Source: Eukaryota sp. GEM-RC1
Lineage: Eukaryota
Reading direction: 5' to 3'
DNA: 64,000 bases
Assembly (NCBI GenBank): GCA_040285855.1
Contig: JAUFOQ010000001.1
Span: 2,728,001 to 2,792,000, forward strand
Part shown: positions 2,969-29,941 of the stretch, piece after piece
How positions within the stretch are numbered: the stretch's first letter is position 1
Layout: each line of letters begins with the position of its first letter
Made by a program: the position numbers and the translations under genes
The notes under the pieces: generated by a model
The model's input: only the letters and a program-made list of their open reading frames with translations
The model's database searches: none
What the model was told of the DNA's origin: nothing

Positions 2969-3059
2969 TAATACCTAAAGGTGCAAAGGGGAAGGTAAAG
3001 GGTGTTTATAAATCAAATTATACGTACTAGTAACACTTCACTAACACCTGTGGCTAACA
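2969..3059 (-). repeat. 3' LTR of copy 1 (91 bp, TGTTAG...GGTATTA)
   Basis: Exact match to the other three LTRs. Confidence 0.95.
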
Positions 3060-6000
3060 TTACCTCTTCTCTCTTCTTGAGCTCCTTGTCCTCTTAGCTA
3101 CAGGTGTCTTAACTACAGACGATGACTTTGGAATACTCATACTACTTGAGGTACGTTTAAGCTTAGTGGGTTTACTCTTAGCTACGTTTCTACTATTACA
3201 AAATAAATCTACATTTTCTAATTTTACAAATTCACTATACGCCTTGGTGTTCTTGATGTCCTTGGTGGGAACTGATGAAGTATCACCACCAAACCAAAGT
3301 ACAGTACAATGTTCACCATCGGGTGTATTGAACCTATCTAGGATCTTAACCACGATGTGTTCTTCAGAATCCCCAGAAGCAATTGCTCTGTGGAGATCAT
3401 GATCAGCAGGTAGATCTGATTGAAAGATCTTACATTGATGAATGCTAGTCTTACTAACATATCCAGTGATCAGATTCTTTAAGGAAACTGACGATTTCGA
3501 ATCAATTGAGACAACTAAATAAGGTCCAGTGTAATTACCATGAAGCTTACTAGTTTTGGATGCTTTTAAAACAAGGTCTCCTACATTGAATGATTGACTG
3601 GGGCCAGACTTCTTCTTTGGCTTGAGTCTCGATTGACGAACCTCTGCCTCTTCTCTCTTTTTAGTAAGACGATCCAGTTTCATTTTAATGTCGTTAATAA
3701 ACGGAACATTCTTTGTTGATTTCTCAACAGCAGCTAGTAAATTACTAGGATCTGCACCAGGACTTATGTCACTACCAAACATCAATTCATAAGGTGAGTG
3801 CCCAGTCACAGAACTATTCGTTGCGTTGATTTGCAATTGTACAGTTGGAATGTACGTTGACCAATTGTCATAATCATTGAAGTCCACAAGAAGACGACGT
3901 AGGCTTTGCAGAACGTCTCTGTGACGTCGTTCCACCAGTCCATTACTCTGGGAGAAATGAGGAATCGAACGACTTACTTCAATCGCCAGTAGGTTACATA
4001 TTGCCTCGAAAATAGCATTGGCAAACTCGGTACCATTATCACTATGGATACAAAACGGTATTCCAAAGATAGCAATCACATCCCACACAAGACGATATGC
4101 TACTTCTCTACTGTTAAGTTCTTCGAGGGGGGCTCAAAATGGTGTATCTGGTGAAAGAATCTACAAACACCAATAGGAATTGGTTTCCATTTTGATCTTT
4201 TGGAAGTGGACCAATTGTGTCGACATTAAGTCTGGCAAAAGGTCTATCAGCCCATAGAGAACCCGTCGATTCAATTATCTTTTTAGGGACAGGTGCCGTT
4301 TTCTGACACGCAGGGCATTGCTTAACATGTTTTACCATGTCAGCTTTCATACTTGGCCAAAAGTAACCACTATTGAACAATATTTCCAAACTTCGTTTCT
4401 TGTTTGGATGTCCTGACTGGACTAATCCATGTAGCATGTAAAGAACTTTCGTTCTCAAACTAGATGGAATCAAAATCTTGTTCTTGGAGTTGATGTATAC
4501 GTTGCTCATAGTACACAGTGTTGAATCCTGAAACAGTTGATCTCCTTCATTGATAGCTTTGTGTTGTTCAGCTCGAATGGTTGATAACCAAGAATCAAAT
4601 AAAGGCAATTTATTGTATGTTGAGAGGTCTTGTAGACTCTTGATAGCTAGTATGTTGGTGTTACAAGGAAGCATCTCAACGTAATCAGCTTCATCATAGA
4701 TTAACCCTTCGTGAGAAAGAATTATATCATTTCTGATGGTATGATTTGAGATCAACAGAGATTTGATTGTTTCAACTGGGCGACGGTCAATGACACGTGA
4801 TAACATGTCAGCCCATTGATTGTTTGTACCAGCTACATGCTCTATCTCAAAATCAAACTCCGAGAAAATTGGAATCCATCGTTTGACAATACGATTCTTC
4901 TCTGGAGCTGAAATCAGATAAGCAAGGTTCCTATGATCTGTAAAGATCGTCAAATGCCTACTTAATAGGAAACCTTCTAAACTAGATTCGGTCAGAATCA
5001 AGAGAATGGCATACAGCTCTTTCTGGATAGCTGCCCAATTCTGTTGACTATCATTGAGTAAACGGCTATAAAACGATACAGGTCTAACTCTACGTTCTTC
5101 TAACGGAGTTCCTGGAGGAGCTGGAGGATTTTCTTCCTGCCAGATCACTCCACCAACAGCAATGTCGGATGCATCTGTGGATATGATAATGTTCTTATCA
5201 GTATCAGGTAAGTCTAAAGCCATATGGTTTATTATTTCAGTTTTAATTTTGTCTAATAAAGCATCATGGTCTTTTGTCCAAGCAATTTTCTTGGGTTTAC
5301 CACGAGTCAGTTCATTGATTGATGCAGTCAAGTTCGAGTAGTTTGGAATCCATTCACGAACATAATTTAAAGCACCAAGTAAACTTCTAACTTCAGGTAA
5401 AGTTGAAGGAGCAGGTAACTCAATCAACGCCGAAACTCTTTTATCATCTATGCAACGGGTTTTATTACAAAAGTTGCTGCCCAGAATCTTATTAGGATGT
5501 CTAGAAGTGGTGAACCTACACTTCTTCAATCCAATCCGTACTCTAAAACGTTCTGCTCGTTCCAGTACTAGATTTATTCTTGAAATAAACTCTTCAAAGG
5601 TATTGCCTACAACAATTATATCATCAATATAAATGAAAACACCTTCGACATTGAAAATTTCCATCATGATGTTTTGAAAGATTGCTGGTACGTTTTTCAA
5701 TCCAAAACATGCTCGTTTAAAGCTAATTGACATTCCAGGTATAGACACACTGGTCTTCTCGACATCTTCTTCAGCTACATTTAGCTGCCAGAATGCTTTA
5801 GGAAGGTCAAGTGTTCCAATGAAATTAGCTTTCGAAAGGAACTCTAGAACATCACAGATCCGTGGTAAATTTGGTTTCACCGGTCTGGTATTAGCATTAA
5901 TCCCATCAGGTCCACTGAAATCTCCAGTTAAACGAGGCTTACGGTGATCATTATATACCACCAAGACTATGGGACTACTGAACTTACCAGTTGATGGTAC

Positions 6001-7077
6001 GGCCCATCCTTGTCGTATAAGTTCATTAAAAATTTCTTCGGCTATTCGCTGTTTTTCAGGGTTAAGCCTTCTAGGAGGACGAAATACAGTGACAGATTCA
6101 TCATAAAATGGAATTGTCATGGGTGGACAATCAATACCATCAGGATGTATGTCTTCTGAAAAGACTTGTTTGTATTTACTGAGTAGGCTCAGAAGCTCCG
6201 TTCTTCTTGTAGGATCATCCAATTCTATCGTGCAACCAGAGTTGTCAATGGTTTCTTCAAACAGATTTATATCTAATTGAGTGTTACCGTACTGATCAAT
6301 AGGAAAATGTGTTGAATGTTGATTTATTGAACATTTTGATTGAACTCTATTAATCGAAATTGATGGAGACCTCATTCTCTCATCAAATTCACTCTCTGCA
6401 TTGAGAATAGTGCGATGTTCTTTATCTAATCTAATGACTAGACCATCATCCGAAAGCAACCCCAGTTCTTCTTGCAAATCTCTACCAATGAGGAGAATTT
6501 TCGTTCCAGGAACTACAGGTAGAGTATGCTTAACATGAATCTGGTTGGCCAAGCTGCCAACGTTGAACGTCAGAACACCAATTGCACTACCTAAGGAAGT
6601 AGCACGAATATTATTCGCTGAGATGTATTCAATACAACTATCAGTTGTTGTCATCTCACAGTAGCGTATCAAATCTTGAGAAATTACTGAACATGATGCT
6701 GCTGAGTCAAATTCTCCTACTACTGGTACATTGTTGATTAACAATCGAATACATAAAGGACCGTTACCTTTAGTTTCGAACCCTAGGTTCTGGTTGAGAC
6801 TACGAATTGTTTCAACTGATGAAACACTTTTACCCGTACTTGATTGTGTGATCAAAGTAGCCAAAGGGTTAGTGTATTTGAGTGGTGTAGTGTTTTTGTT
6901 TGAATTATGTTGTGCATTATCAATTTTGAAAATGTATCTAGGAGATTTATGATTTTTAAAACTACGAGAACGACTATCAGGACGACTATCACCAGACCTA
7001 CGCTTATTGGACTTTGCATTATCCTGAGATTTACGACAATCAGGAGCATAATGGCCTTTTTGCCACATTTGAAACAT
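3060..7077 (-). CDS. pol: Pol (protease, RT, RNase H, integrase, degenerate chromodomain-like tail), copy 1; extra G in the run at ~4127-4132
   Basis: FDSAAS, LDLPKAFWQL, YIDDI, TDASD, HHCC (H..GHP..CPAC), VDTIGPLP, SDNGTEF, NGLVER, YTGPY. Copy 2 is intact at the 4130 break. Confidence 0.93.
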
Positions 7078-9664
7078 TCTACATCAGTGGACTTACCATC
7101 AGAGGGTTTAGAGTACCTCTGGTTGAAGGACTTTCTAGGAAAACGAGAATTTCCACGGGAATGGTCACGAGACCTTCTTTGAGAGTTTGAAAACGATGTC
7201 GTTGGCATCGAACGCTTGTAATCGATCCAAGCTGTCTTTACTTCACTCAAAAATTCAGGAAGCAAATGTTCATTGTTCTTTAAAGTGTGTTCCCACTTAA
7301 CTTGGAGATCGTTTAGAGCAGCAATTTCTTTCTGAGGATTGAGTGTACATAACACTAAGTCGGCTGAGATGCTAGCTGGGAGAAAAGTTCTACCAGTACC
7401 TAGGGAAATGGCTGTCGAACATTTTAAAATGTTGATAACAAGCTTTAGGTACCGATTCATTACAGTGGATGGATCATTAGATTGACTAAGTCTAAGATTC
7501 TTCAGATCACCCATAGCTTGAGTAGTAGAAGTGTATTGGCTCAGGAGAACCAATCTGAACCAAAGGTCTTTTTCAGTTATGTTTGAATCTGGACCTGGAA
7601 CATTTAGAAGCTTCCAGTCACTCAGCAATTGACGATCAATGAATTCGGAAACACCAGTAGGATCAATCTCTAACAAAGTGAGTCTTACGAGATCAAATTT
7701 ATTGATTGGAGCGATACCTAAACGAGTGTCAAAGTCTTTACGATTTGATTGTTTCCGGACATGAATTGCCCAATAACTAAATTCATGGATGAACTTAATT
7801 ATGTCCTCGCGACTCTCGGATTTGAGGCAGCTGGGTCTTGATTTCTTTGAAATGGACTTTTTCTTTGTTCGATCTTTTCTTTGAGGGACACCAGAAAAAA
7901 TGATGGGAGTATCAGCCAAAACGTTCGGTTCTTCGTCTTCAGATGAGCTATCTTCAGACATAGAGTCAGTGACATCAGAAAGTTCTGCCAAAGGTGATTT
8001 TGATTGAGAAGTCAGATCACTTATCTCGATCGAATTTGATCGTTTAGGAGTTTTTCTACTTCTGGTCATGTGAGCAACATGATTTTTTCTATTTTGAGCA
8101 AGCTGTTCTGAGGAGAGAGCCATGGACATAGATTCATCACAACCTTTAGCAAAGCCTTCTGGCTTACGATAAACACTTTCATGTTCTTCTAAGCTGATGA
8201 ATCTTTCTTCACCACCAAATTGAGCTTCAAAATTTTGGGTAGAGATACCATCTCTAAGACCGTGTGTAAATCTATCAACCTGCTCAGGTCTGTAAACTTC
8301 ACCAGGGAAGAATCTTTGAACACTATCTAAGCCATTTAAATCAGAAAGGTTCGGAGCAAATGTAGCTTTTTCACACATAGCTTGAGAAGCTAATGGGAGT
8401 ACCAATTGGGAACCACCAATTCCAGAAAAAGGTTGAACAGGGACAGAGTCAACATCTTGTGGTGAAGTTGACAAACTATCCAGAACTCTTGTCGCCGCAG
8501 GTAAATGACTATACTGATGACCAGTAGGGAGCCATTCGGTACTTACAGAAACGTTGTGATATAACTTGCGTTTATTGTTCAACGAATGTAAGTACCAGGC
8601 GGAGTATTCATATGAAACTGACTGACCATCAGCACTGAATATCTGGACTAAAGGTTCAATGATGATACCATGTCTAGGATCCCAAGAGTAGGTGGAAGGA
8701 AACCTATAAGTATCACCAGCTCTACTATCATATAAGTCACCCAAAAACTGTTTTATGGCTTGAGGAGACGTGCCAGGAGGAACATTTTTCAGCAAGTAAT
8801 GTCTTCCAGCAGGCATTCTATGACGCAAAGTGGGATGCCAGGGAGCAAATTTGGCAAGATGCCACAAGTCGTAGTCAGAGATGGAGACACTCTGATCGTA
8901 CGGACTTACAAACGGGATGAGATCGTTGGGAACTGCATCTCTATGAGGTCTAGACACATAACCGGTTTGTTGTTCTACAGCTAGAGCTCTCTCAGTCATG
9001 GAAAGATTAGCTGTTTTTTGCTGTTGCTCCAGAAGCTGTCGTTTTGCTTCTTCTGCCCTGGTCTTATGCTGAGCTAGGACTGTTTGAAGTTGCCTAAGGC
9101 TCTCTTCAACCTCTCTAGACAGAGGAACTGAAGGATCAACGTTATCTTTATTTAATAAACTACTAACTAACAAGGAAGAATCAGAAACATGATGAGAGGG
9201 CAATGATGTTGGCTGAACTACAGACGAAGTAGCATTACCCACAACATTGTCTCCCGGAGTACTAGTGGTATCTGAAAAGATAACGGGGACTCCGTATTTC
9301 TCCAGAACCTTCTTGATTCCAAGAGGATCTTCCTGTTCTGGTCCAATGGATGACTCCAAAGGACCAGGGTTGCCGCCAGACTCCGAAGAGCCCAAGGGTC
9401 TTATACCAGTCGTTTCGCCGGCTTCCGAAGAAGCCAAGGAACTTCCATCAACGTTTGAAGATGGGCTCTCGTGTGAGGAGAGACTCTCGGGTGAGGAGAG
9501 TTCGGACACAAAGTCCTCTTCATCTACTGAGGATTCAGTAGGCACTTCGATCGGGGTGGCAGAGCTCTTCGATACTCTGGTCTTTTGACAGACCTACTTG
9601 GCTGTCTGCGGTTAGTAACTCCTTTCTTAGGAGCAGCTGTAGTAAGATTCCTCTTTTTTACCAT
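6852..9664 (-). CDS. gag: Gag with long N-terminal extension, copy 1; one base missing in the run at ~9583
   Basis: Near-identical to 14207-17020; ATG at 9664; zinc knuckle begins CFKCGKK. Confidence 0.8.
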
Positions 9665-9679
9665 GAGGATAATAATTAT

Positions 9680-9770
9680 TAATACCTAAAGGTGCAAAGG
9701 GGAAGGTAAAGGGTGTTTATAAATCAAATTATACGTACTAGTAACACTTCACTAACACCTGTGGCTAACA
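9680..9770 (-). repeat. 5' LTR of copy 1
   Basis: Exact 91-bp repeat. Confidence 0.95.
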
Positions 9771-12616
9771 CATCTCTGTGATCAAATCACTTCTGGACAC
9801 TGGTTTTGCCATCCATGAGTTCATTCCACTGTTAATAGTATGGTACCTCGATTCAACGGACACATCACCAGTCAGACAGAGAATTTTTACCTTGGAAAGA
9901 CCATTCATGCCTTCATGTCTACGTATATCCTTTGCAGCTTGAGTTCCGGAGTACGGCATTCTATAGTCTAAACAAACCAGATCATAAGCACTTGGATTAT
10001 CTCGATATTTCTCCGCTGCTTTGTCACCATTATCAACTAGAGTCACCACACATCCCAATGAACCTAACAACAGACTAATGAATTTACGATTGAGAGGGCG
10101 ATCATCTGCAACAAGAATAGAGAATTGTCCTAATGTAAGAAAGAAAGCAAAACAAACCTCCATTGACAGGAGCCCTCAGAGTTTGAATCTTACGATAATG
10201 CAGATGTGGGGTGGACCGTTTCCATCCACTTAAGAACTGCTTTACTCTCTTATATGTAATTTGGGAATGAACAGTGGAGTACTCGCCATATGATCCTTTG
10301 GGATCAATTACCATTACTGGTGATCCTTCAAAACCTGCCTTGATTAAGGGAATGAACTCTGAAAAGACTTCGTGATCAACAATAATATACTGCTGAAGAG
10401 TTGTATCAATAGCTGTTATTCTATTGAGAATTGATTGCCTTGATGGTTCTTCAAATCCGTAACACTTCGTTTTCATTAGTCTAAGTTGAGCCAGAAGAAA
10501 ATAGGAGAGCGGTCGTCGTCTACAAAACACAAAGCATTGGTGATCTCGGAAGTAGGTGGGAGTTGCTGCTTCATGTGGATGTACCAGGGGAAGAGTAAGC
10601 CGTAGTTTGAATACCGATCCTTTGCCCTCCCTACTTCTAACGGTAATGTTGGAGCCCATCATTCTAGCTAGGGACCCTGAGATAGCTAGTCCTAACCCTG
10701 AACCTCCGTACTTGGTCGTGATTTGGGCATTGGCTTGAGTGAAAACATTGAACAATTTGCCAACATCACTAGTTGAGATGCCAATACCAGTATCGTGGCA
10801 GGAAAGAGTGAACGATAGATTTTTATCTGCTATTGATTGTTTTCTAAGTTGGATTCTGACATAACCACTGTGAGTAAACTTTAGTGCATTCGAGACCAAG
10901 TTGATTAAAATTTGTTGAATTCGATTACGATCACCGACTACCATCACGTCACAGACAGGGTCTACAGTATTCAATAGCTCAACTGATGCTTTGGACCCAA
11001 CAATGTCTGAGTGTATTTCAATCACATGATCGATAATTGATGGTAGGTGAAATTCTGTCTGGTCAAGCTCAATCCTACCACTTTCGATTCTGGTAAAGTC
11101 AAGAATGTTTGTGATAATAGAAAGTAACGATGATGATGAATGGTTGACAATCTCCAGAATTCTTTGCGATTCATCGCTAAGGTCTGCACTTTGATCTAAT
11201 AAAGACAACAAACCAATAATGCTGAGATGAATGATGAAGAGAACAACATACGAATTGAGCGCTGCAATAAGGAAAACAAGTTGAACAAACGGGTTCGCTA
11301 TGATAAAAAACATGTAAACTGGGACATACAATTTCATGAGATATTGTTGCCAAAAACAAGGATTGTGCACGGTTAGCTTCACTTGCTGCCACTATTGCAT
11401 CATTTAGCTCTGTTAAATCAAGCATTACGCCAGTTACTTCCAGAACTTTACCATCTTCGTCGAACTTTGATGGACGGCCAGACTTTCTTACCCAAATCAA
11501 GCGTGGAGGATCATCAAACGTATACCGATGTTCATCAAATGTTGGAAACTCTTTCCCTTCGAAAACATCGTGCCATGACGAATCCCATAGCTGTAAGAAA
11601 TCAGGAACTAACTTATTCCTGAAATCATCATAAGAAACAGATACTGAGTGAAGTCCATGAATTTCTTGAGCACTCTTGCTGAAATGAATAGTAAAAGAAC
11701 ATACGTCAAGTAAAATACTTGATTTTCACAATCGAGACGCCAAAATCCAAACTATGCAAGACACTGCGCATCCTTTAGATCTTTCTTTATCGATAAAACT
11801 TGATTTTCCTTACTGTGTAGAGTTTTCAACAACTTTTCTTTCTCCTTAAACTCCAATTTGTGTTGCTCGAAATCAGGTGTATCTGAGATTGGTTTGATGA
11901 CGCCAAAAACTCTAACGGTGTGACGATTTAACTCAGCTGCAAAAGCTTGACAGCTGATTAGCTGAGTCTTGCCATTGATGAGGAAAGGTGCAGTGAAGAC
12001 AGCATCAGAGCTCACCCCATTGAGAACGTCATCAAACTGCTGTTGGATGTGCATTTTGTGGGTTAAATCAAAGTGGTTCATAAAGTCTTGTAGAGTCTCT
12101 GGAACACCGATAGGAGATTTGAACATTTTCAAATATCTGTCGTCAACATAAAAGGAGTCATGCGAAGGATTATATATGAATGTTGAAACTCCACACAGGG
12201 ATAAGCATTTCTCCATTAACCAGGAAGAAGTGGCAACCTGTGCTTCCCTTTGGTAGAGGTTTTGCGTTGTTAAATACAATTAGTGCCTCAAATGAGTTTA
12301 ATGTAATAACATTGATTAAGAAAGAACGGGGAACCCCTGTTGGGGATTGAAGTGTGAAGATCTGAGATTCCATTGGGATCGAGTGGGAGAGAGACTGTAT
12401 CAGTTTCTGGGTGAACAAAGACGCTTCAAAGAAGTCTGGGAAGAGTGTATGGATGTCTAGAGATTTCAAGGATTCAACGTCAGTATCAAGATGAAATGCC
12501 AACTTACGGGAAACGTCAGCAATGATCCCATCTACGTTGACAAGAGCAATCGCTGAAGGAGATTCAAGGAGTGGCCGTGGCATTCTGGGTGGAGAATCAA
12601 GACTGACAGAGATATC
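9771..12616 (-). pseudogene. Hybrid histidine kinase, copy 2, probably disabled
   Basis: Paralog of 1-2575 with the same introns (11679-11704, 11298-11329, 11262-11290, 11222-11251, 10130-10157) and receiver LVCLDYRMP...KPV. Defects: in-frame TAG at 11752-11754, an extra base near 12246, and an LTR insertion near the C-terminus. The 5' start is uncertain. Confidence 0.8.
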
Positions 12617-13032
12617 CTATGATAAACGTTTAAAGATGACTTGTCGTCGTTCACCCGAGACACTCTCCATCCGGTGAAAGAAGTAAGTGTGTGCCGATTG
12701 TTCGATACCAATTATCATTATGGATCAGGAGGTACAGTAAAACGCGAACAAGCTTAATATTAACAATAGTTACTTTCAAGTGCTTGCAAGCTCTACAAGT
12801 GCATAAATTCTGAAGTAATCTGATTAAGACACCCGTTATGAGGACATCACGTCACACAAAGAAGGATGCAAGTAAAAACACTGTTATACATAACAAACCG
12901 TAGCGAATATTGGTCTAGCCCTATCTAAGTGCAATTATTGGTCGTTGTGCACTGAATCCTAACGGTTGTACATCAATAGATGTATATCGATTTGGAATTA
13001 AGTTGAGATGATGATTCTAACCCCCTCCTAAT

Positions 13033-13603
13033 TTGACTTGACTCATGAGTCAACCAAGCCTGACTCGAGCTGACTCATTTTAACAACCTTTGACTTGACT
13101 TGACTTGACTCATGAGTCAACCTGACTCGAGCTGACTCATTTTGAATGCTTTTTTCTATTGTACTTTATAACATAACACAAATCCTACTGTTTTCCACTG
13201 ATCTGAATTTAATACACCTGTTTCGTACCACGAACGTAAACACAGTAAACACCTTGCAGTATCGTCAGAAAGTCTTTCCCCTTTCTTTGTTACAATTTGG
13301 TTTGCAGCAGAGAACTCCAAACAGGAGAACGAATTTTACTAGAGTCTCAATAACGATAGGGTTTGATGAAGACATTGAGGAAAGACAAATGAATTTATAC
13401 AGAGAACAGCTACTAATTCGATGTACGTTGTATAATAGAATACGTTTGAATTGTATTAAATTGTATTTATTAGAGTAAACTTGAGTAGAGCTGACTCACA
13501 GACAGAAACATAGGCTTGGCTTGACTCGTGAGTCAAATGAGCCTGACTCGAGCTGACTGACTCAAAGCTCAGTGAGTTAGCTTGACTCAAAATTACAATC
13601 CTA
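13033..13603. mobile_element. hAT-like non-autonomous element, left TIR lost
   Basis: CTCCTAAT flanks both sides (13025-13032, 13604-13611). The right end reads TAGGATTGTAATT on the minus strand. Dense TGACTC/GAGTCA subterminal repeats at both ends. Confidence 0.65.
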
Positions 13604-14100
13604 CTCCTAATGAACTAGGAATGTTAATTAGTTCAGTTCAGTTCACACCTCCATGAACGGAACAGAACTAAATGAACTTACATTTTATTCCATTTTTATT
13701 ACTACATAAATGCACTTTTTTACCACATATAAGGAACGTAGGATGAAATATCTCAATAGTGTTATGAAATGGTCAACTTAAAGCCACGTAAGAACGCAAG
13801 TGTTTAAAGATCAAATTTACCGTTTTCTTAGTTAAATATACCTTTCTTAATGGTAAATTTACTGCGAAGAGCCGAAAGCGGAAGAAATTGAAGATCGTCG
13901 AAAGCAAGTGTTTGCGGAGTTGAACAAGTATATCACAGAAGCTACTTGTGATGTTTCATCCAATCCTTTACACTATTGGACCTGGAAATCACAACGCGTA
14001 CCCTAGATTGTCAACGCTATTTTGGAGAAATGCAACAATTAAAGCCAGTAGTGTTGCGTCTGAGCGTTTGTTTTTACTTGCAAGACTGATTGCATGTAAA

Positions 14101-14191
14101 TGTTAGCCACAGGTGTTAGTGAAGTGTTACTAGTACGTATAATTTGATTTATAAACACCCTTTACCTTCCCCTTTGCACCTTTAGGTATTA
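14101..14191 (+). repeat. 5' LTR of copy 2
   Basis: Exact 91-bp repeat. Confidence 0.95.
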
Positions 14192-14206
14192 ATAATTATT
14201 ATCCTC

Positions 14207-17020
14207 ATGGTAAAAAAGAGGAATCTTACTACAGCTGCTCCTAAGAAAGGAGTTACTAACCGCAGACAGCCAAGTAGGTCTGTCAAAAAGACCAGAGTAT
14301 CGAAGAGCTCTGCCACCCCGATCGAAGTGCCTACTGAATCCTCAGTAGATGAAGAGGACTTTGTGTCCGAACTCTCCTCACCCGAGAGTCTCTCCTCACA
14401 CGAGAGCCCATCTTCAAACGTTGATGGAAGTTCCTTGGCTTCTTCGGAAGCCGGCGAAACGACTGGTATAAGACCCTTGGGCTCTTCGGAGTCTGGCGGC
14501 AACCCTGGTCCTTTGGAGTCATCCATTGGACCAGAACAGGAAGATCCTCTTGGAATCAAGAAGGTTCTGGAGAAATACGGAGTCCCCGTTATCTTTTCAG
14601 ATACCACTAGTACTCCGGGAGACAATGTTGTGGGTAATGCTACTTCGTCTGTAGTTCAGCCAACATCATTGCCCTCTCATCATGTTTCTGATTCTTCCTT
14701 GTTAGTTAGTAGTTTATTAAATAAAGATAACGTTGATCCTTCAGTTCCTCTGTCTAGAGAGGTTGAAGAGAGCCTTAGGCAACTTCAAACAGTCCTAGCT
14801 CAGCATAAGACCAGGGCAGAAGAAGCAAAACGACAGCTTCTGGAGCAACAGCAAAAAACAGCTAATCTTTCCATGACTGAGAGAGCTCTAGCTGTAGAAC
14901 AACAAACCGGTTATGTGTCTAGACCTCATAGAGATGCAGTTCCCAACGATCTCATCCCGTTTGTAAGTCCGTACGATCAGAGTGTCTCCATCTCTGACTA
15001 CGACTTGTGGCATCTTGCCAAATTTGCTCCCTGGCATCCCACTTTGCGTCATAGAATGCCTGCTGGAAGACATTACTTGCTGAAAAATGTTCCTCCTGGC
15101 ACGTCTCCTCAAGCCATAAAACAGTTTTTGGGTGACTTATATGATAGTAGAGCTGGTGATACTTATAGGTTTCCTTCCACCTACTCTTGGGATCCTAGAC
15201 ATGGTATCATCATTGAACCTTTAGTCCAGATATTCAGTGCTGATGGTCAGTCAGTTTCATATGAATACTCCGCCTGGTACTTACATTCGTTGAACAATAA
15301 ACGCAAGTTATATCACAACGTTTCTGTAAGTACCGAATGGCTCCCTACTGGTCATCAGTATAGTCATTTACCTGCGGCGACAAGAGTTCTGGATAGTTTG
15401 TCAACTTCACCACAAGATGTTGACTCTGTCCCTGTTCAACCTTTTTCTGGAATTGGTGGTTCCCAATTGGTACTCCCATTAGCTTCTCAAGCTATGTGTG
15501 AAAAAGCTACATTTGCTCCGAAACTTTCTGATTTAAATGGCTTAGATAGTGTTCAAAGATTCTTCCCTGGTGAAGTTTACAGACCTGAGCAGGTTGATAG
15601 ATTTACACACGGTCTTAGAGATAGTATCTCTACCCAAAATTTTGAAGCTCAATTTGGTGGTGAAGAAAGATTCATCAGCTTAGAAGAACATGAAAGTGTT
15701 TATCGTAAGCCAGAAGGCTTTGCTAAAGGTTGTGATGAATCTATGTCCATGGCTCTCTCCTCAGAACAGCTTGCTCAAAATAGAAAAAATCATGTTGCTC
15801 ACATGACCAGAAGTAGAAAAACTCCTAAACGATCAAATTCGATCGAGATAAGTGATCTGACTTCTCAATCAAAATCACCTTTGGCAGAACTTTCTGATGT
15901 CACTGACTCTATGTCTGAAGATAGCTCATCTGAAGACGAAGAACCGAACGTTTTGGCTGATACTCCCATCATTTTGTCTGGTGTCCCTCAAAGAAAAGAT
16001 CGAACAAAGAAAAAGTCCATTTCAAAGAAATCAAGACCCAGCTGCCTCAAATCCGAGAGTCGCGAGGACATAATTAAGTTCATCCATGAATTTAGTTATT
16101 GGGCAATTCATGTCCGGAAACAATCAAATCGTAAAGACTTTGACACTCGTTTAGGTATCGCTCCAATCAATAAATTTGATCTCGTAAGACTCACTTTGTT
16201 AGAGATTGATCCTACTGGTGTTTCCGAATTCATTGATCGTCAATTGCTGAGTGACTGGAAGCTTCTAAATGTTCCAGGTCCAGATTCAAACATAACTGAA
16301 AAAGACCTTTGGTTCAGATTGGTTCTCCTGAGCCAATACACTTCTACTACTCAAGCTATGGGTGATCTGAAGAATCTTAGACTTAGTCAATCTAATGATC
16401 CATCCACTGTAATGAATCGGTACCTAAAGCTTGTTATCAACATTTTAAAATGTTCGACAGCCATTTCCCTAGGTACTGGTAGAACTTTTCTCCCAGCTAG
16501 CATCTCAGCCGACTTAGTGTTATGTACACTCAATCCTCAGAAAGAAATTGCTGCTCTAAACGATCTCCAAGTTAAGTGGGAACACACTTTAAAGAACAAT
16601 GAACATTTGCTTCCTGAATTTTTGAGTGAAGTAAAGACAGCTTGGATCGATTACAAGCGTTCGATGCCAACGACATCGTTTTCAAACTCTCAAAGAAGGT
16701 CTCGTGACCATTCCCGTGGAAATTCTCGTTTTCCTAGAAAGTCCTTCAACCAGAGGTACTCTAAACCCTCTGATGGTAAGTCCACTGATGTAGAATGTTT
16801 CAAATGTGGCAAAAAGGCCATTATGCTCCTGATTGTCGTAAATCTCAGGATAATGCAAAGTCCAATAAGCGTAGGTCTGGTGATAGTCGTCCTGATAGTC
16901 GTTCTCGTAGTTTTAAAAATCATAAATCTCCTAGATACATTTTCAAAATTGATAATGCACAACATAATTCAAACAAAAACACTACACCACTCAAATACAC
17001 TAACCCTTTGGCTACTTTGA
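14207..17020 (+). CDS. gag: Gag with long N-terminal extension, copy 2
   Basis: Starts 15 nt after the LTR. R/S-rich nucleocapsid region; CCHC knuckle split at the A5 run 16811-16815. Confidence 0.8.
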   Translation: MVKKRNLTTAAPKKGVTNRRQPSRSVKKTRVSKSSATPIEVPTESSVDEEDFVSELSSPESLSSHESPSSNVDGSSLASSEAGETTGIRPLGSSESGGNPGPLESSIGPEQEDPLGIKKVLEKYGVPVIFSDTTSTPGDNVVGNATSSVVQPTSLPSHHVSDSSLLVSSLLNKDNVDPSVPLSREVEESLRQLQTVLAQHKTRAEEAKRQLLEQQQKTANLSMTERALAVEQQTGYVSRPHRDAVPNDLIPFVSPYDQSVSISDYDLWHLAKFAPWHPTLRHRMPAGRHYLLKNVPPGTSPQAIKQFLGDLYDSRAGDTYRFPSTYSWDPRHGIIIEPLVQIFSADGQSVSYEYSAWYLHSLNNKRKLYHNVSVSTEWLPTGHQYSHLPAATRVLDSLSTSPQDVDSVPVQPFSGIGGSQLVLPLASQAMCEKATFAPKLSDLNGLDSVQRFFPGEVYRPEQVDRFTHGLRDSISTQNFEAQFGGEERFISLEEHESVYRKPEGFAKGCDESMSMALSSEQLAQNRKNHVAHMTRSRKTPKRSNSIEISDLTSQSKSPLAELSDVTDSMSEDSSSEDEEPNVLADTPIILSGVPQRKDRTKKKSISKKSRPSCLKSESREDIIKFIHEFSYWAIHVRKQSNRKDFDTRLGIAPINKFDLVRLTLLEIDPTGVSEFIDRQLLSDWKLLNVPGPDSNITEKDLWFRLVLLSQYTSTTQAMGDLKNLRLSQSNDPSTVMNRYLKLVINILKCSTAISLGTGRTFLPASISADLVLCTLNPQKEIAALNDLQVKWEHTLKNNEHLLPEFLSEVKTAWIDYKRSMPTTSFSNSQRRSRDHSRGNSRFPRKSFNQRYSKPSDGKSTDVECFKCGKKAIMLLIVVNLRIMQSPISVGLVIVVLIVVLVVLKIINLLDTFSKLIMHNIIQTKTLHHSNTLTLWLL

Positions 17021-20000
17021 TCACACAATCAAGTACGGGTAAAAGTGTTTCATCAGTTGAAACAATTCGTAGTCTCAACCAGAACCTAGGGTTCGAAACT
17101 AAAGGTAAAGGTCCTTTATGTATTCGATTGTTAATCAACAATGTACCAGTAGTAGGAGAATTTGACTCAGCAGCATCATGTTCAGTAATTTCTCAAGATT
17201 TGATACGCTACTGTGAGATGACAACAACTGATAGTTGTATTGAATACATCTCAGCGAATAATATTCGTGCTACTTCCTTAGGTAGTGCAATTGGTGTTCT
17301 GACGTTCAACGTTGGCAGCTTGGCCAACCAGATTCATGTTAAGCATACTCTACCTGTAGTTCCTGGAACGAAAATTCTCCTCATTGGTAGAGATTTGCAA
17401 GAAGAACTGGGGTTGCTTTCGGATGATGGTCTAGTCATTAGATTAGATAAAGAACATCGCACTATTCTCAATGCAGAGAGTGAATTTGATGAGAGAATGA
17501 GGTCTCCATCAATTTCGATTAATAGAGTTCAATCAAAATGTTCAATAAATCAACATTCAACACATTTTCCTATTGATCAGTACGGTAACACTCAATTAGA
17601 TATAAATCTGTTTGAAGAAACCATTGACAACTCTGGTTGCACGATAGAATTGGATGATCCTACAAGAAGAACGGAGCTTCTGAGCCTACTCAGTAAATAC
17701 AAACAAGTCTTTTCAGAAGACATACATCCTGATGGTATTGATTGTCCACCCATGACAATTCCATTTTATGATGAATCTGTCACTGTATTTCGTCCTCCTA
17801 GAAGGCTTAACCCTGAAAAACAGCGAATAGCCGAAGAAATTTTTAATGAACTTATACGACAAGGATGGGCCGTACCATCAACTGGTAAGTTCAGTAGTCC
17901 CATAGTCTTGGTGGTATATAATGATCACCGTAAGCCTCGTTTAACTGGAGATTTCAGTGGACCTGATGGGATTAATGCTAATACCAGACCGGTGAAACCA
18001 AATTTACCACGGATCTGTGATGTTCTAGAGTTCCTTTCGAAAGCTAATTTCATTGGAACACTTGACCTTCCTAAAGCATTCTGGCAGCTAAATGTAGCTG
18101 AAGAAGATGTCGAGAAGACCAGTGTGTCTATACCTGGAATGTCAATTAGCTTTAAACGAGCATGTTTTGGATTGAAAAACGTACCAGCAATCTTTCAAAA
18201 CATCATGATGGAAATTTTCAATGTCGAAGGTGTTTTCATTTATATTGATGATATAATTGTTGTAGGCAATACCTTTGAAGAGTTTATTTCAAGAATAAAT
18301 CTAGTACTGGAACGAGCAGAACGTTTTAGAGTACGGATTGGATTGAAGAAGTGTAGGTTCACCACTTCTAGACATCCTAATAAGATTCTGGGCAGCAACT
18401 TTTGTAATAAAACCCGTTGCATAGATGATAAAAGAGTTTCGGCGTTGATTGAGTTACCTGCTCCTTCAACTTTACCTGAAGTTAGAAGTTTACTTGGTGC
18501 TTTAAATTATGTTCGTGAATGGATTCCAAACTACTCGAACTTGACTGCATCAATCAATGAACTGACTCGTGGTAAACCCAAGAAAATTGCTTGGACAAAA
18601 GACCATGATGCTTTATTAGACAAAATTAAAACTGAAATAATAAACCATATGGCTTTAGACTTACCTGATACTGATAAGAACATTATCATATCCACAGATG
18701 CATCCGACATTGCTGTTGGTGGAGTGATCTGGCAGGAAGAAAATCCTCCAGCTCCTCCAGGAACTCCGTTAGAAGAACGTAGAGTTAGACCTGTATCGTT
18801 TTATAGCCGTTTACTCAATGATAGTCAACAGAATTGGGCAGCTATCCAGAAAGAGCTGTATGCCATTCTCTTGATTCTGACCGAATCTAGTTTAGAAGGT
18901 TTCCTATTAAGTAGGCATTTGACGATCTTTACAGATCATAGGAACCTTGCTTATCTGATTTCAGCTCCAGAGAAGAATCGTATTGTCAAACGATGGATTC
19001 CAATTTTCTCGGAGTTTGATTTTGAGATAGAGCATGTAGCTGGTACAAACAATCAATGGGCTGACATGTTATCACGTGTCATTGACCGTCGCCCAGTTGA
19101 AACAATCAAATCTCTGTTGATCTCAAATCATACCATCAGAAATGATATAATTCTTTCTCACGAAGGGTTAATCTATGATGAAGCTGATTACGTTGAGATG
19201 CTTCCTTGTAACACCAACATACTAGCTATCAAGAGTCTACAAGACCTCTCAACATACAATAAATTGCCTTTATTTGATTCTTGGTTATCAACCATTCGAG
19301 CTGAACAACACAAAGCTATCAATGAAGGAGATCAACTGTTTCAGGATTCAACACTGTGTACTATGAGCAACGTATACATCAACTCCAAGAACAAGATTTT
19401 GATTCCATCTAGTTTGAGAACGAAAGTTCTTTACATGCTACATGGATTAGTCCAGTCAGGACATCCAAACAAGAAACGAAGTTTGGAAATATTGTTCAAT
19501 AGTGGTTACTTTTGGCCAAGTATGAAAGCTGACATGGTAAAACATGTTAAGCAATGCCCTGCGTGTCAGAAAACGGCACCTGTCCCTAAAAGATAATTGA
19601 ATCGACGGGTTCTCTATGGGCTGATAGACCTTTTGCCAGACTTAATGTCGACACAATTGGTCCACTTCCAAAAGATCAAAATGGAAACCAATTCCTATTG
19701 GTGTTTGTAGATTCTTTCACCAGATACACCATTTTGAGCCCCCTCGAAGAACTTAACAGTAGAGAAGTAGCATATCGTCTTGTGTGGGATGTGATTGCTA
19801 TCTTTGGAATACCGTTTTGTATCCATAGTGATAATGGTACCGAGTTTGCCAATGCTATTTTCGAGGCAATATGTAACCTACTGGCGATTGAAGTAAGTCG
19901 TTCGATTCCTCATTTCTCCCAGAGTAATGGACTGGTGGAACGACGTCACAGAGACGTTCTGCAAAGCCTACGTCGTCTTCTTGTGGACTTCAATGATTAT

Positions 20001-20810
20001 GACAATTGGTCAACGTACATTCCAACTGTACAATTGCAAATCAACGCAACGAATAGTTCTGTGACTGGGCACTCACCTTATGAATTGATGTTTGGTAGTG
20101 ACATAAGTCCTGGTGCAGATCCTAGTAATTTACTAGCTGCTGTTGAGAAATCAACAAAGAATGTTCCGTTTATTAACGACATTAAAATGAAACTGGATCG
20201 TCTTACTAAAAAGAGAGAAGAGGCAGAGGTTCGTCAATCGAGACTCAAGCCAAAGAAGAAGTCTGGCCCCAGTCAATCATTCAATGTAGGAGACCTTGTT
20301 TTAAAAGCATCCAAAACTAGTAAGCTTCATGGTAATTACACTGGACCTTATTTAGTTGTCTCAATTGATTCGAAATCGTCAGTTTCCTTAAAGAATCTGA
20401 TCACTGGATATGTTAGTAAGACTAGCATTCATCAATGTAAGATCTTTCAATCAGATCTACCTGCTGATCATGATCTCCACAGAGCAATTGCTTCTGGGGA
20501 TTCTGAAGAACACATCGTGGTTAAGATCCTAGATAGGTTCAATACACCCGATGGTGAACATTGTACTGTACTTTGGTTTGGTGGTGATACTTCATCAGTT
20601 CCCACCAAGGACATCAAGAACACCAAGGCGTATAGTGAATTTGTAAAATTAGAAAATGTAGATTTATTTTGTAATAGTAGAAACGTAGCTAAGAGTAAAC
20701 CCACTAAGCTTAAACGTACCTCAAGTAGTATGAGTATTCCAAAGTCATCGTCTGTAGTTAAGACACCTGTAGCTAAGAGGACAAGGAGCTCAAGAAGAGA
20801 GAAGAGGTAA
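16795..20810 (+). CDS. pol: Pol (PR-RT-RH-IN-chromo-like), copy 2; one A missing at ~19588
   Basis: Same motifs as copy 1. Copy 1 is intact (PKKII) at this break. Confidence 0.93.
20792..20807 (+). promoter_or_regulatory. Polypurine tract overlapping the last pol codons
   Basis: AAGAAGAGAGAAGAGG, then the TAA stop, then the LTR TGTTAG. Copy 1 equivalent at 3063-3078. Confidence 0.85.
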
Positions 20811-20901
20811 TGTTAGCCACAGGTGTTAGTGAAGTGTTACTAGTACGTATAATTTGATTTATAAACACCCTTTACCTTCCCCTTTGCACCTTTAGGTATT
20901 A
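20811..20901 (+). repeat. 3' LTR of copy 2
   Basis: Exact 91-bp repeat. Confidence 0.95.
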
Positions 20902-21229
20902 TAAAACAAGACTCCAGTTAAGTGATGATTCAGTTCAATCGCATGTTTGCTTGCACTCATGGTTAATTACTGATGCTAATTAGAGTATGTTTTTCACATG
21001 ATGGTTTATTAAATTTTGGAACGATTGAGTACTACATGTACTTGTTGATGACTCGTTGATTTGATCTTAGGTGCATTATTGTGGAAACAATGGTAGATTT
21101 GCTTCAGTTCAGATAGTTCAGTTCAGTTCATGAACTAGTTCAGTTCAGTTCATGGTAGTCAGTGAACTAGTTCAGTTCAGTTCACACTTTTTTGAACTGA
21201 ACTGAACTGAACTATTTAACATTCCTATA

Positions 21230-26509: not shown

Positions 26510-27447
26510 CTGCATACACCAGCAAGTAGAAGAATAGAAGACATCAAAGGAGAAATTACAGTATCGATATATAGCTAACAGTAGTTAAAACCAGTCTTAT
26601 TAGAAGGGATTGGATGAGACAGCAGCTGAGAAATACATCAATAACTAACAGGTTCAGCAAAGCGTCATATACGTAAGACTTGTTAGAAAAAGAAGCGTCG
26701 GTTTTATGTTTCTCCCAGTGTGGCTGTGCCGCTGTGGGCATGAAATACCATTATGTAATCCTTAACTCTCAACATCGTAATCAGAGGGAAACTCTGCTGC
26801 TTTTCTAAACTGGAAGTGGAGGGTTGATATATGTAACGGACGCACAGTTGTTGACAATCACACACGATCTGACAGTTTACTCTTCATAAGTGATATGGAC
26901 AATTATCATATTCTGATTCTAGTTCCAGACAATTTGATCTCAAACAAAAGTAGAACAACTGTTAATTTATCACGAACTAAGATAAATATATTTATTTGTA
27001 CTGTATTTCATCAATAGTCTACCAATTAATTTCTTTGTTGTTGGACAATACTATTTTTCTGTTTCTACCATGTTCCAAAAGGGATTGTCGGGGTTTATTT
27101 CAGAATGAGAAACTGCCACTAAGACTTGAAAAGTAGATAGAGTAATGAAGGAGGACTTAAATTTTGTTGAAGTTTTTTTGTGGAGCTTATTTTTCCTTCA
27201 TAGTGAAGCCGCTTTTAGAATATGATGTATTCGTTTCAGTTAACAACTTACTGTAACTGCATGTAGTTGTTTGTTCATGTCTATTAGCCTAACTTCTAAC
27301 AAATACCCAAAATAGCCACCAAGTTTAGTGTGAACAATTGTGTCAAAATATTTTGATCATTTCCACGCTTTGAACACAGGGTTCGTAGATGCTTTTAAGT
27401 AATAAAAGAATTTTAATGTTTGCTAAACAATTAGAATGTTATCAAGT

Positions 27448-29022
27448 TTATTCAACGATTTCAAGTACGTGATTACTATTACATAACCTAGCATACGGAT
27501 AATAATGACCACTACTTAATCTGGGAAGAGTTCCAGTAAGAATAATTGAAGAATTACTCACAGATTTGATTGTTAAAGTGTGATTGATGAGATTTACATT
27601 GATTTCGAGTAATTCACCAGGATTCCACTGAGTTTTGTTTCCTGAGAGACAACCAGAAACAAGACCATTATAATTGCGAAAACAGTGAGCACTCCCATAA
27701 CAACCACCTTCAACACTAAACTTTGACTCGTCAATGACTCCAACAACAAGATTATCAGTATACCCCTGGTACCTCAACTTCCAAGTAAAATCATTACCTG
27801 GAAGAAGTGGATCTTCTCCCAATATATTTCTCCACCCAATACCACCACTTCCAACAACAACTCTCTTTCTATCCCCACTAACTTGTAACTGAGAATGTTT
27901 CTTAGTTGGGGAGAATCTAATCACTTTTGATTGAGGAACTGATGGAGACACCACTTGAGTTTCTGTAGTTGTCTTTTTAAGTTGCTCAATTTCCTGTTGT
28001 AGTTTGGTAATTTCGTTAGACTTTGTAGCAGTTAAATTCTGAATATCAGTTGTTAAACCAGAATTGTTGCTATCTAAATCAGAAATTGTTGTCTTCAAAT
28101 GAGAGATTTCTGTCTTCAAATCATGATTTTCCGTTGCTAAATCAGTAGTAAGTGTGTTTAAATCAGAATTGTTACTTTCTAAATCCGAACATTTGGTAGT
28201 TAATTCAGAATTTTGAATGTTCAAATCAGAATTTTCTTCCTTCAAATCAGAATTTTCCTTCACCAACGAGTCAAAATAAAGATTCTTAACTCTTGTGAAC
28301 AAAAACTTCATCAAATCGGCTTCCAATTCTTCAACATCTTTTAAAGGAACAAACAAAAACTCATCCCATTGTTGAAAAGAAAAGGCTTCAATTGAACAAG
28401 AATTTAATACAGTTAAAAACTCATTCAAATCAAAACTTTGATTCAAAATTGATTCCACCATTGATTTAATGAACCACGATTGAGATTGAGTGGAAGTACA
28501 GTATTTTGAAAGTGTTTGTAACCCTTCAGTAGTGATTTCCATCACGTCATCAATCAGAAGGTCATCAATTTTACAAAAGAAAGGACCAGCGAATTCCAGA
28601 GCTCTCAAGTCACTTCTTTCATTTGCTTCTTTAATGAATAATTTTAACCAAGCCCAAGTTACGAGATGGGTGTCTAGGTGGTTTTCCACTTGTACGATCA
28701 GTTTGTCCACTTGGAAGTAGTGAACGAGAAAGTAGAAGTCATAGGCATTGTTCTCGTTGAGGGTGAAAGTTCGTCCAAAGAAGGACTTGATGAAGGCAAG
28801 AAAGTTGTTGGAATGGACAGGGAGATGGGAGAAGTCGATTGGGTTTTCGTCTCTATCACCAAACTCCAAGAACCAAAGAGACCGAAAGTAGGTAGAATGG
28901 GCAGCAAGGATGATTCTATGTACTTCAATAGACTCTTCTCCAAATGTAATAGTTTGATTACAGAGGGAAGGGTCATCGAGGATGATGGAAAGAGTTTCTG
29001 TTGGGGGAAGAGAGAATGACAT
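27448..29022 (-). CDS. BTB/POZ - coiled coil - B30.2/SPRY-like protein
   Basis: VHRIILAAHSTYFRSL (BTB), heptad NSDL repeats, and a C-terminal beta domain (TWKLR..VGVI..GELLEINVNL..YPYA). Start taken at MSFSLPP, shared with the paralog. Confidence 0.8.
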   Translation of the reverse strand: MSFSLPPTETLSIILDDPSLCNQTITFGEESIEVHRIILAAHSTYFRSLWFLEFGDRDENPIDFSHLPVHSNNFLAFIKSFFGRTFTLNENNAYDFYFLVHYFQVDKLIVQVENHLDTHLVTWAWLKLFIKEANERSDLRALEFAGPFFCKIDDLLIDDVMEITTEGLQTLSKYCTSTQSQSWFIKSMVESILNQSFDLNEFLTVLNSCSIEAFSFQQWDEFLFVPLKDVEELEADLMKFLFTRVKNLYFDSLVKENSDLKEENSDLNIQNSELTTKCSDLESNNSDLNTLTTDLATENHDLKTEISHLKTTISDLDSNNSGLTTDIQNLTATKSNEITKLQQEIEQLKKTTTETQVVSPSVPQSKVIRFSPTKKHSQLQVSGDRKRVVVGSGGIGWRNILGEDPLLPGNDFTWKLRYQGYTDNLVVGVIDESKFSVEGGCYGSAHCFRNYNGLVSGCLSGNKTQWNPGELLEINVNLINHTLTIKSVSNSSIILTGTLPRLSSGHYYPYARLCNSNHVLEIVE

Positions 29023-29941
29023 TTGAAGCAGTGCAAAAGGAGGTGAGAAATGGTATGTACAATGTTTTTCTACTGAACTGCATGTGGTTTGTCTAATTAG
29101 TGTCATCAGCAATTTAGTCTCAGTGAGACTAATTCTTAAGTTGACCTTTGTTAATGAGACTATAATCCAAGTACATGTATACTCGATATAGATTAATTTT
29201 TGTTTTCTATGTTTCCTATGCTCTGGTTGGCTTTACGGACTATTCATATGTTCCATCATGACCGATCTTTTTAAGCATCTTACGACCTCAAGACCCTGCT
29301 GTTATTACCTCCGAGGAAAATATCTGGGATTCTGATGGAATTTCAGACAGTACAAACCATGGTTACACGTAGTGAACTCTCTTTGGACTTTGAAGCTGAT
29401 GAACATATAAACAGCACTCAAATGTACATTGCTTTTGAAAAAATTGTTGGAAAATAAGCTGAATTTTGTGGTGGGACTGAGAATCACACTGATCACTGTC
29501 ATTCGCAACAATAAATAATAAAAAATGATAAAGTAATCTTATACTTAGTAATTCAATTATAAATTATTGTCGAATTTGAATTGAGGGCAGACTAGAAGTG
29601 AAATTATACTTCTTTGGAATTGTATCTCAATTAATATAAACAATATAATACAACAGTTCTGATGAACATTGACCTAAGTGCCTTGAATTAACAAGCTCCT
29701 TCGAAGACCAGAATCCAAGTCGTTCAGTTACAAATGGTAAAGAATTTCAAAATCTAGAACAGAATAATTTGTAAGGTATTTTGTAGAAAGTACCGATTTT
29801 CGAAATATGGGGCAACCCTTAATCATTCTTTCCAGAACCCTTCTTTATGGCTTTCAATTACCGAAACAAACTTTGTATTTTACAATAACAACAATAATGA
29901 ATATTGAAAATGATTTTTTATTGTCCTTTTTTTACAAACTA

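Follow-up and report, generated by a model that had tools for sequence, protein, structure and literature searches.

We analyzed a 64-kb window of contig JAUFOQ010000001.1 from the assembly of Eukaryota sp. GEM-RC1 (all positions given below are those of the window), which contains two insertions of 6.8 kb, named here copy A (14101 to 20901, plus strand) and copy B (2969 to 9770, minus strand). Each insertion is bounded by a pair of long terminal repeats (LTRs) and carries a gag-pol coding region, and both are placed among ordinary host genes. As host organism, the most likely candidate is the free-living anaerobic metamonad Skoliomonas sp. GEMRC. We hold with good confidence that the two insertions, 99.9% identical to each other, represent a family of the Ty3/gypsy order with 91-bp TG...TA LTRs and 4-bp target-site duplications (TSDs), which has likely transposed recently and which is predicted to encode one polyprotein if the breaks found in its reading frame are assembly errors.

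Architecture and coding capacity of the two insertions

A direct-repeat search over the whole window returned two LTR pairs, 14099 to 14191 with 20809 to 20901 (93 nt, 100% identical) and 2969 to 3059 with 9680 to 9770 (91 nt, 100% identical). The pair of copy A is 2 nt longer by coincidence, since the final AA of its left TSD equals the AA of the TAA stop codon in front of the 3′ LTR. Reading of the four junctions leaves a block of 91 nt common to all four LTRs, which starts with TGTTAG and ends with GGTATTA. Each half of the LTR has exactly four matches in the window, where none is expected according to 100 shuffles, and no LTRs other than these four were found in it. The ends are TG...TA in four of four LTRs, instead of the TG...CA that is usual in Ty3/gypsy elements. 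In copy A, the 5′ LTR (14101 to 14191) and the 3′ LTR (20811 to 20901) are flanked by TAAA at 14097 to 14100 and at 20902 to 20905, respectively. In copy B, on the minus strand, the 5′ LTR (9680 to 9770) and the 3′ LTR (2969 to 3059) are flanked at 9771 to 9774 and at 2965 to 2968, respectively, by CATC as read on the plus strand, which is GATG on the strand of the element. The TSDs are perfect in both copies, and a 91-bp LTR with a 4-bp TSD is the only geometry that fits the two of them. The four identical 91-bp LTRs and the 4-bp TSDs reported in an original prediction, which had been made from the sequence alone, were all reproduced by our repeat search and junction reading. As for the content of the LTR, it harbors three TGTTAG/TGTTAC repeats (LTR positions 1, 14, and 25), TATA-like runs (positions 38 to 55), a TAAAC at position 52, and a 3′ third that is rich in C and T.

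The space between the LTRs is used almost entirely for coding. A leader of 15 nt, in which neither TGG nor a tRNA-type primer-binding site (PBS) was seen, separates the 5′ LTR from the ATG at 14207 in copy A (leader at 14192 to 14206), and a leader of the same length lies at 9665 to 9679, on the minus strand, in copy B. On the opposite side, the stop codon TAA (20808 to 20810) directly adjoins the start of the 3′ LTR at 20811, and a polypurine tract is present in the form of a 16-nt purine run (20792 to 20807) which is separated from the 3′ LTR by the 3 nt of the stop codon only. This run contains the final five sense codons, AGA AGA GAG AAG AGG, which encode RREKR within the C-terminal ..SRREKR. 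All three traits of this minimalist layout, i.e., the short leader, the abutting stop codon, and the coding polypurine tract, had been described before, and we recovered each of them. The C terminus encoded by the polypurine tract is kept in the sister families, where P0004 (86% identical) ends with ..KRTRSSKEEKR and P0005 (70% identical) with ..KRTRNSKREKR, and such conservation at the protein level fits a constraint acting on the RNA.

From end to end, the copies differ by four substitutions and three one-base indels in 6801/6802 nt; together with the identical LTRs and the intact TSDs, this speaks for the recent movement that had been proposed. The coding span as assembled measures 6604 nt in copy A and 6605 nt in copy B (3060 to 9664, minus strand), and becomes 6606 nt in both copies, or 97.1% of 6801 nt, with homopolymer lengths that preserve the frame. 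The earlier claim of a same 6606-nt span, about 97% coding, holds as a prediction that depends on such correction, with the reservation that one of the corrected breaks, in a run of five A residues (A5), occurs in each of the two copies and splits their CCHC zinc knuckle.

The domain order is Gag(CCHC)-protease (PR)-reverse transcriptase (RT)-RNase H-integrase (IN), and the part from PR to IN follows the order characteristic of Ty3/gypsy elements. The Pfam families RVT_1, RT_RNaseH, Integrase_H2C2, and rve were detected above their cutoffs in that order, along with a weak match to Asp_protease_2 (E value of 0.0046), and the motifs FDSAAS, YIDD, HHCC, D-D-E, and GPY/F are present. In copy A as assembled, these domains are spread over three frames, all on the plus strand. 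The first frame (14207 to 16816) encodes Gag and ends in the first half of the knuckle (CFKCGKK, 16796 to 16816). The second one (16816 to 19593) comprises the other half of the knuckle (16816 to 16836), the protease with its FDSAAS motif (17161 to 17178), RT (Pfam match at 18034 to 18399, YIDD at 18241 to 18252), RNase H (18592 to 19017), and the HHCC zinc domain of the integrase (19402 to 19578). The third frame, from 19590 to the end of the stop codon at 20810, comprises the DDE catalytic core of the integrase (rve at 19623 to 19913, with the D, D, and E motifs at 19644 to 19664, 19824 to 19847, and 19926 to 19949), the GPY/F motif (20343 to 20360), and a putative degenerate chromodomain at 20472 to 20672. 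No further open reading frame (ORF) of at least 100 amino acids was found on the strand of the element, and no env-like third ORF of the errantivirus type was among its contents.

Among solved structures, to which the comparison is confined, the RT-RNase H region is closest to Ty3 Gag-Pol and Ty3 RT (E values of 2.5e-47 and 1.2e-45), and then to the corresponding regions of a caulimovirus (2.7e-27), a foamy virus (about 1e-21), and a gammaretrovirus (about 1e-13), while the integrase core matches foamy-virus and Ty3 integrases. The assignment to Gypsy-type elements made in the original prediction is confirmed by the PR-RT-RNase H-IN order and by the closeness to Ty3 RT. The integrase tail, consisting of the last ~65 residues, has no match to Pfam Chromo at an E value of ≤10. 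Searched alone, the tail aligns collinearly with chromodomains that Pfam does recognize, those of P0039 (E value of 2e-5) and P0041 (E value of 0.014), and, judged by this alignment, it is probably a degenerate chromodomain. It keeps only one of the three aromatic positions of the methyl-lysine cage known from work on HP1.

Gag is unusually long, with ~870 residues before the knuckle, the first 230 of which are Ser-rich and of low complexity. It has no match to any Pfam family, and its relatives are limited to 18 matches among 1.84 billion representative proteins and to 2 in a word-index search. The 280 residues that precede the knuckle gave a helical, two-lobed structure model (predicted local distance difference test score [pLDDT] of 70.4), the top structural neighbor of which is the Copia capsid, with a Z score of 8.0 over 164 aligned residues, a value that is middling for a helical model and below the safe level of the tool (VIA-align). 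Nine of the 50 neighbors listed are retroelement capsids (dArc1, dArc2, PEG10, MOAP1, PNMA2, murine leukemia virus [MLV], and Ty3), and no Foldseek match was obtained with the capsid-region model at an E value of ≤0.001. On the basis of the model, this part of Gag (16028 to 16666) is predicted to be all-helical and capsid-like. For a further block closer to the N terminus (14927 to 15373, residues ~241 to 389), conservation is strong between this Gag and that of a sister family, which is 46% identical overall. The block belongs to no Pfam family, and no relatives of it were detected outside the skoliomonad elements; its model (pLDDT of 51) is too poor for a fold search, and the best score obtained in the Atlas, 0.80, is at chance level. 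The block looks like an extra Gag domain.

For the phylogenetic placement, a quick maximum-likelihood tree was calculated with 39 pol sequences, i.e., the one of the window and 38 picked from the 120 matches listed, with a root that serves for drawing only. The window sequence groups with its nine closest skoliomonad proteins in a clade of 10 rows, starred in the tree, the sister of which consists of two proteins with a chromodomain; the metamonad Aduncisulcus contributes the element that branches off next to these. The skoliomonad elements form their own clade, with ≤40% identity to anything outside skoliomonads, and, since the tree is composed of database matches and holds no named reference elements (GyDB/Repbase), the clade is left unnamed. 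The proposal of an undescribed lineage agrees with this clade and with the available passages of the genome paper for GEM-RC1-type organisms, in which the word "retrotransposon" occurs zero times. Among the papers listed in a single literature search, none dealt, by its title or abstract, with LTR elements of metamonads.

Element-derived proteins with 96 to 99% identity are encoded on other contigs, including the internal-deletion derivatives P0012, P0125, and P0126, and the family is therefore multicopy. P0016 combines the Gag of another family with a pol that is 97% identical to that of the window and, from this sequence pattern, looks like a recombinant between families. An exact 26-nt LTR pattern had no matches in genome_contigs and none in viral_contigs. 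A metagenome scan with the pol alignment returned 32 loci, all of them distant (22 to 46% identity in the best segment) and none informative on the termini.

Frame breaks and termini

In copy A, the frame changes at the A5 run at 16811 to 16815 (by −1) and at a run of four A residues (A4) at 19588 to 19591, which is private to this copy (A5 in copy B) and puts the HHCC domain of the integrase out of frame with its catalytic core. In copy B, it changes at the corresponding A5 run (7057 to 7061) and at two private runs, one at about 9583 to 9586, which is A4 versus A5 in copy A, and one at about 4127 to 4132, which is C6 versus C5 in copy A. The three one-base indels between the copies, i.e., three of their seven differences, all lie in homopolymer runs, and each of them breaks the frame of one copy. 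The A5 run falls inside the knuckle, where frame 1 reads CFKCGKK and the −1 frame reads GHYAPDC, which, once joined, make an exact CX2CX4HX4C.

It is fairly probable, in our judgment, that the breaks are Nanopore assembly errors at homopolymers, in which case one Gag-PR-RT-RNase H-IN polyprotein is predicted from the sequence. Three frameshifting homopolymer indels versus four substitutions resemble miscalls more than decay. In both sister-family proteins that span the knuckle, P0016 and P0146, Gag, the CCHC motif, and the protease are in one frame, and there is no A run at that place. According to the accessible part of the paper describing the GEM-RC1 genomes, the host assembly was made with Nanopore R9.4 data, and Illumina reads served for its correction.

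Several observations weigh against an intact element with the features proposed here. As assembled, neither copy is an open gag-pol, with two breaks in copy A and three in copy B, and the break at the A5 run inside the CCHC knuckle is common to both. P0012, the sole other annotated protein of the family that covers the A5 region, begins just past this break. At the three other A6 runs of the element, both copies keep the frame, so that the same random miscall made twice is not easy to assume and a context-specific error is needed. To these are added that the termini and the TSD length rest on two insertions only, that no TGG is present within 16 nt of the LTR end, where a tRNA-type PBS would place it, and that the layout of U3, R, and U5 within the LTR is wholly inferred. 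The Gag without Pfam family, the middling capsid score, the tail without Chromo match, and the tree without named references, all described above, count in the same direction.

A possible but less probable explanation is that the breaks are real and both copies are defective, either because of decay after insertion or because they descend from a master element that already bore the A5 break and that sister-family proteins mobilized in trans. The A5 run shared by the two copies, the start of P0012 right past the break, and the A6 runs called in frame would all be accounted for. The candidate helper would be the recombinant family with the 97% identical pol, i.e., the sister family of P0016, which has an intact knuckle and a cluster of 15 member sequences, and the deletion derivatives indicate that nonautonomous copies do persist. 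Against real breaks, the ratio of three frameshifting indels, all in homopolymers, to four substitutions would be far above what usual neutral decay leaves, the assembly is based on Nanopore R9.4 according to the part of its description cited above, and the A5 break sits within an otherwise perfect zinc knuckle.

As regards the termini, it is improbable that the true geometry consists of a 90-bp LTR ending in ...GGTATT with a 5-bp TSD, as usual in chromovirus-like elements. Chromoviruses have a 5-bp TSD, the relatives of the element bear chromodomains, and copy B does fit this geometry (AGATG/AGATG). The original prediction had stated that "copy 1" alone would fit it as well, which is true if copy 1 is the insertion at 2969 to 9770, the first in the window. 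With the same geometry, however, copy A has GTAAA versus ATAAA, with four of five positions matching, whereas a 91-bp LTR with a 4-bp TSD is perfect in both copies; moreover, the end of a 90-bp LTR would still not be CA.

It is very improbable, finally, that the shared A5 run sets the Gag:Gag-Pol ratio through programmed −1 ribosomal frameshifting or through slippage during transcription, as such sites do in many retroviruses: although a −1 shift after GGC AAA AAG yields exactly ..GKK GHYAPDC and the site is present in both copies, the unshifted Gag would lack half of the knuckle and end in ~70 hydrophobic out-of-frame residues, the heptamer is C AAA AAG and not X XXY YYZ, the 84 nt located 3′ of the run fold like shuffles (z of +0.18; 114 of 200 do equally well or better), and two of two sister families have a continuous frame without an A run at this site.

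Priming and proposed replication cycle

When we inspected the window for tRNA genes, none was found, and none was found in the 18 loci scanned of the 32 related metagenome loci. Self-priming of the Tf1 type was likewise not apparent: even with G-U pairs counted, the LTR has no complementary stretch of at least 7 nt in the 45 nt that follow it. Duplex energies obtained in this context range from −8.2 to −14.1 kcal/mol, were calculated without a control, and are given no weight, and the LTR-leader RNA has an ordinary fold (z of −0.75; 43 of 200 shuffles fold as well). A perfect 12-nt palindrome, TAATAATTATTA, lies across the LTR/leader junction (14190 to 14201, plus strand), where the PBS must lie; with 39 palindrome centers of at least 12 nt in 64 kb, the chance of such a palindrome at a given site is ~0.7%. 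The same palindrome is found again at 36508 to 36519, where it overlaps the stop codon of a ThrE-like ORF (35521 to 36510), probably as a coincidence. In the 60 nt that follow 18 host ORFs, no 5-mer is more enriched than the TAAAC also found in the LTR, with 8 occurrences versus 1.72 expected, in 6 of the 18 genes. Its uncorrected P value of 4e-4 fails over 1024 tests, and TAAAC is retained as a lead for a poly(A) signal only.

In the general cycle of LTR retrotransposons, whatever separates R from the primer site ends up in both LTRs. For the family described here, transcription would begin past the TATA-like runs of the 5′ LTR, within its final third, and would end in the 3′ LTR; with a start beyond LTR positions 38 to 55 in an LTR of 91 bp, R would be only ~10 to 30 nt long. 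In the portion of the source at hand, the R regions of mouse mammary tumor virus and Rous sarcoma virus are given as 11 and 21 nt long, respectively. Translation would begin 15 nt past the LTR, the protease would cut the polyprotein, and the capsid-like Gag, with its one zinc knuckle, would package the RNA. Given the copying rule mentioned above, the minus-strand primer would have to pair on ATAATTATTATCC, at most a few bases away from the LTR end. Since ATAATTATTATCC is complementary neither to the ...CCA end of a tRNA, given that it has no TGG, nor to the LTR of the element itself, the primer cannot be read from the sequence. Plus-strand synthesis would proceed from the polypurine tract, and the integrase would insert, with a stagger of 4 bp, a DNA whose U3 end is canonical (TG, corresponding to CA on the other strand) and whose U5 end is not (TA). 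For a possible acceptance of the TA end by the integrase, which the original prediction had put forward, the count is two insertions.

A host whose genes are densely packed and whose control regions are very short is the likely background of the extreme compaction of the element. A more far-reaching scenario, which we regard as speculative and rather unlikely in its entirety, would have the family as a metamonad-specific, chromovirus-like branch that is near the lower size limit of LTR retrotransposons and that gave up tRNA priming and the CA end, so that another primer would pair with the A/T-only palindromic site at the LTR edge and the integrase would process a TA end.

Related elements, genomic setting, and implications

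Ty3 of Saccharomyces cerevisiae (Metaviridae) resembles the element of the window in the PR-RT-RNase H-IN order, as the best match among solved structures, in the CCHC motif of Gag, in the polypurine tract beside the 3′ LTR, and in the TGTT at the LTR start. In Ty3, however, the LTRs are of 340 bp with TG..CA ends, tRNA-iMet serves as the primer, the TSD is 5 bp, gag and pol are linked by a +1 frameshift, and insertion is targeted to polymerase III start sites, whereas here the LTR is 91 bp with TG..TA ends, no tRNA-type PBS was seen, the TSD is 4 bp, and a single ORF is predicted. With the chromoviruses, the element is connected through its nearest nonskoliomonad relatives, P0039 and P0041, which bear a Pfam chromodomain past GPY/F to which the tail of the window element is homologous; unlike theirs, this tail is without a Pfam chromodomain match at an E value of ≤10. 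The Tf1/Tf2 group is comparable for the single gag-pol ORF, here a predicted one, and for having no tRNA-type PBS. In Tf1, the first 11 bases of the RNA pair with the PBS, whereas the window element has no complementarity of at least 7 nt between the LTR and the sequence downstream.

The mag element of Bombyx mori has LTRs of ~77 bp. With short LTRs and, often, a single ORF, the mag lineage of Ty3/gypsy elements is similar in design and differs in having tRNA-type primer sites, TG..ACA ends, and animal hosts. The Mag-like elements of Culex have LTRs of 119 to 304 bp and 4- to 5-bp TSDs (Table 1 of PMC3286476), and primer sites for tRNA-Leu/Ser/Arg are reported for Mag-like elements (PMC3286476). 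In the same work, Culex gypsy lineages are described with 4-bp TSDs, single ORFs, and LTRs of 119 to 145 bp (PMC3286476). As for the ends, TG..TA ("TGTA") is one of seven noncanonical LTR motifs in plant genomes, where, in the portion of that study available to us, 89% of the noncanonical elements are Copia and 11% are Gypsy, with a mean noncanonical Copia LTR of 272 bp (bioRxiv 10.1101/137141). According to the same portion, the noncanonical plant elements, the "TGTA" type of which has the TG..TA ends of the window element, also share with it LTRs shorter than canonical ones and insertion near genes, but they are mostly Copia, have a longer mean LTR, and reside in unrelated plant hosts. Among Ty3/gypsy elements themselves, the Zam/errantivirus group is without TG..CA, with a 5′ end AGTTA... 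and a 3′ end ...TAAYT. The errantiviruses (gypsy, Zam) are in this respect similar to the element of the window, which, being 97% gag-pol, leaves no room for an env-like ORF; errantiviruses have this third ORF and LTRs of at least 300 bp, and short TA-rich TSDs are reported for Culex gypsy elements (PMC3286476). The emphasis that the original prediction had put on the TA end and the small size as unusual was overstated, considering the precedents of TGTA motifs, the non-CA ends of Zam, 4-bp TSDs, and LTRs of 119 to 145 bp. Each of these features has precedents, and what is new is their combination, in a deep-branching protist lineage.

The ORFs that flank the insertions are ordinary host genes, among which are tandem histidine-kinase paralogues, ALG10, BTB proteins, and a kinase. 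Both insertions are intergenic: copy A lies 328 nt upstream of the ATG of an ALG10-like gene (21230), and copy B lies 393 nt upstream of the ORF at 1604 to 2575 (minus strand). Each of them is oriented like the next gene, a count of two which is no test of target preference. Copy B is located between tandem histidine-kinase paralogues (HisKA plus HATPase_c; 1 to 2550 and 10053 to 12618, 83 to 88% identical in DNA), where the apparent repeat period of 10 kb is ~3.25 kb without the element. No empty site could be read for copy B, as the paralogous histidine-kinase unit does not cover the insertion site and the similarity stops at 2550/12618. Around copy A, palindromic GTTCA/TGAAC motifs are found at 13623 to 13684 and 21162 to 21223, which is 417 nt before and 261 nt after the element, and TTGACTCATGAGTCAA palindromes are found three times upstream of it (13033 to 13137 and 13516 to 13558). 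Both kinds of motifs lie outside the element and may be host promoter elements or tiny repeats.

Elsewhere in the window, a U3 small nucleolar RNA at 31154 to 31332 (minus strand) is the sole Rfam match at gathering score (37 bits, E value of 1e-4). Arrays of 84-nt tandem repeats, 60 to 77% identical, lie within ORFs at 31827 to 32762 and 51493 to 52263, and the ORF with the second array (51400 to 52980, minus strand) encodes a leucine-rich-repeat protein (LRR_6). Three paralogous stretches, 78 to 89% identical, are located at 27447 to 28359, 48113 to 48783, and 56871 to 57742; the ORFs at 27448 to 29112 and 57341 to 58483, which belong to these stretches, encode BTB/POZ plus coiled-coil proteins.

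The family described here bears on how LTR retrotransposons are detected. LTR finders commonly assume LTRs of at least 100 bp and, according to the part of the plant study considered here, often assume TG..CA ends (bioRxiv 10.1101/137141), and with such assumptions elements like those of the window would be missed and the repeat content of compact protist genomes would be undercounted. Within the present assembly, the element can serve as a marker for residual homopolymer errors in repeats. The family is also a natural experiment on the minimal LTR that can accommodate a promoter, R, polyadenylation, and integrase recognition, and it raises the question of priming, as the sequence adjacent to its LTR shows no recognizable site for a tRNA 3′ end and no complementarity of the self-priming type. 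To the metamonads, where such elements are barely described, it adds a diversified and apparently active lineage of LTR retrotransposons.

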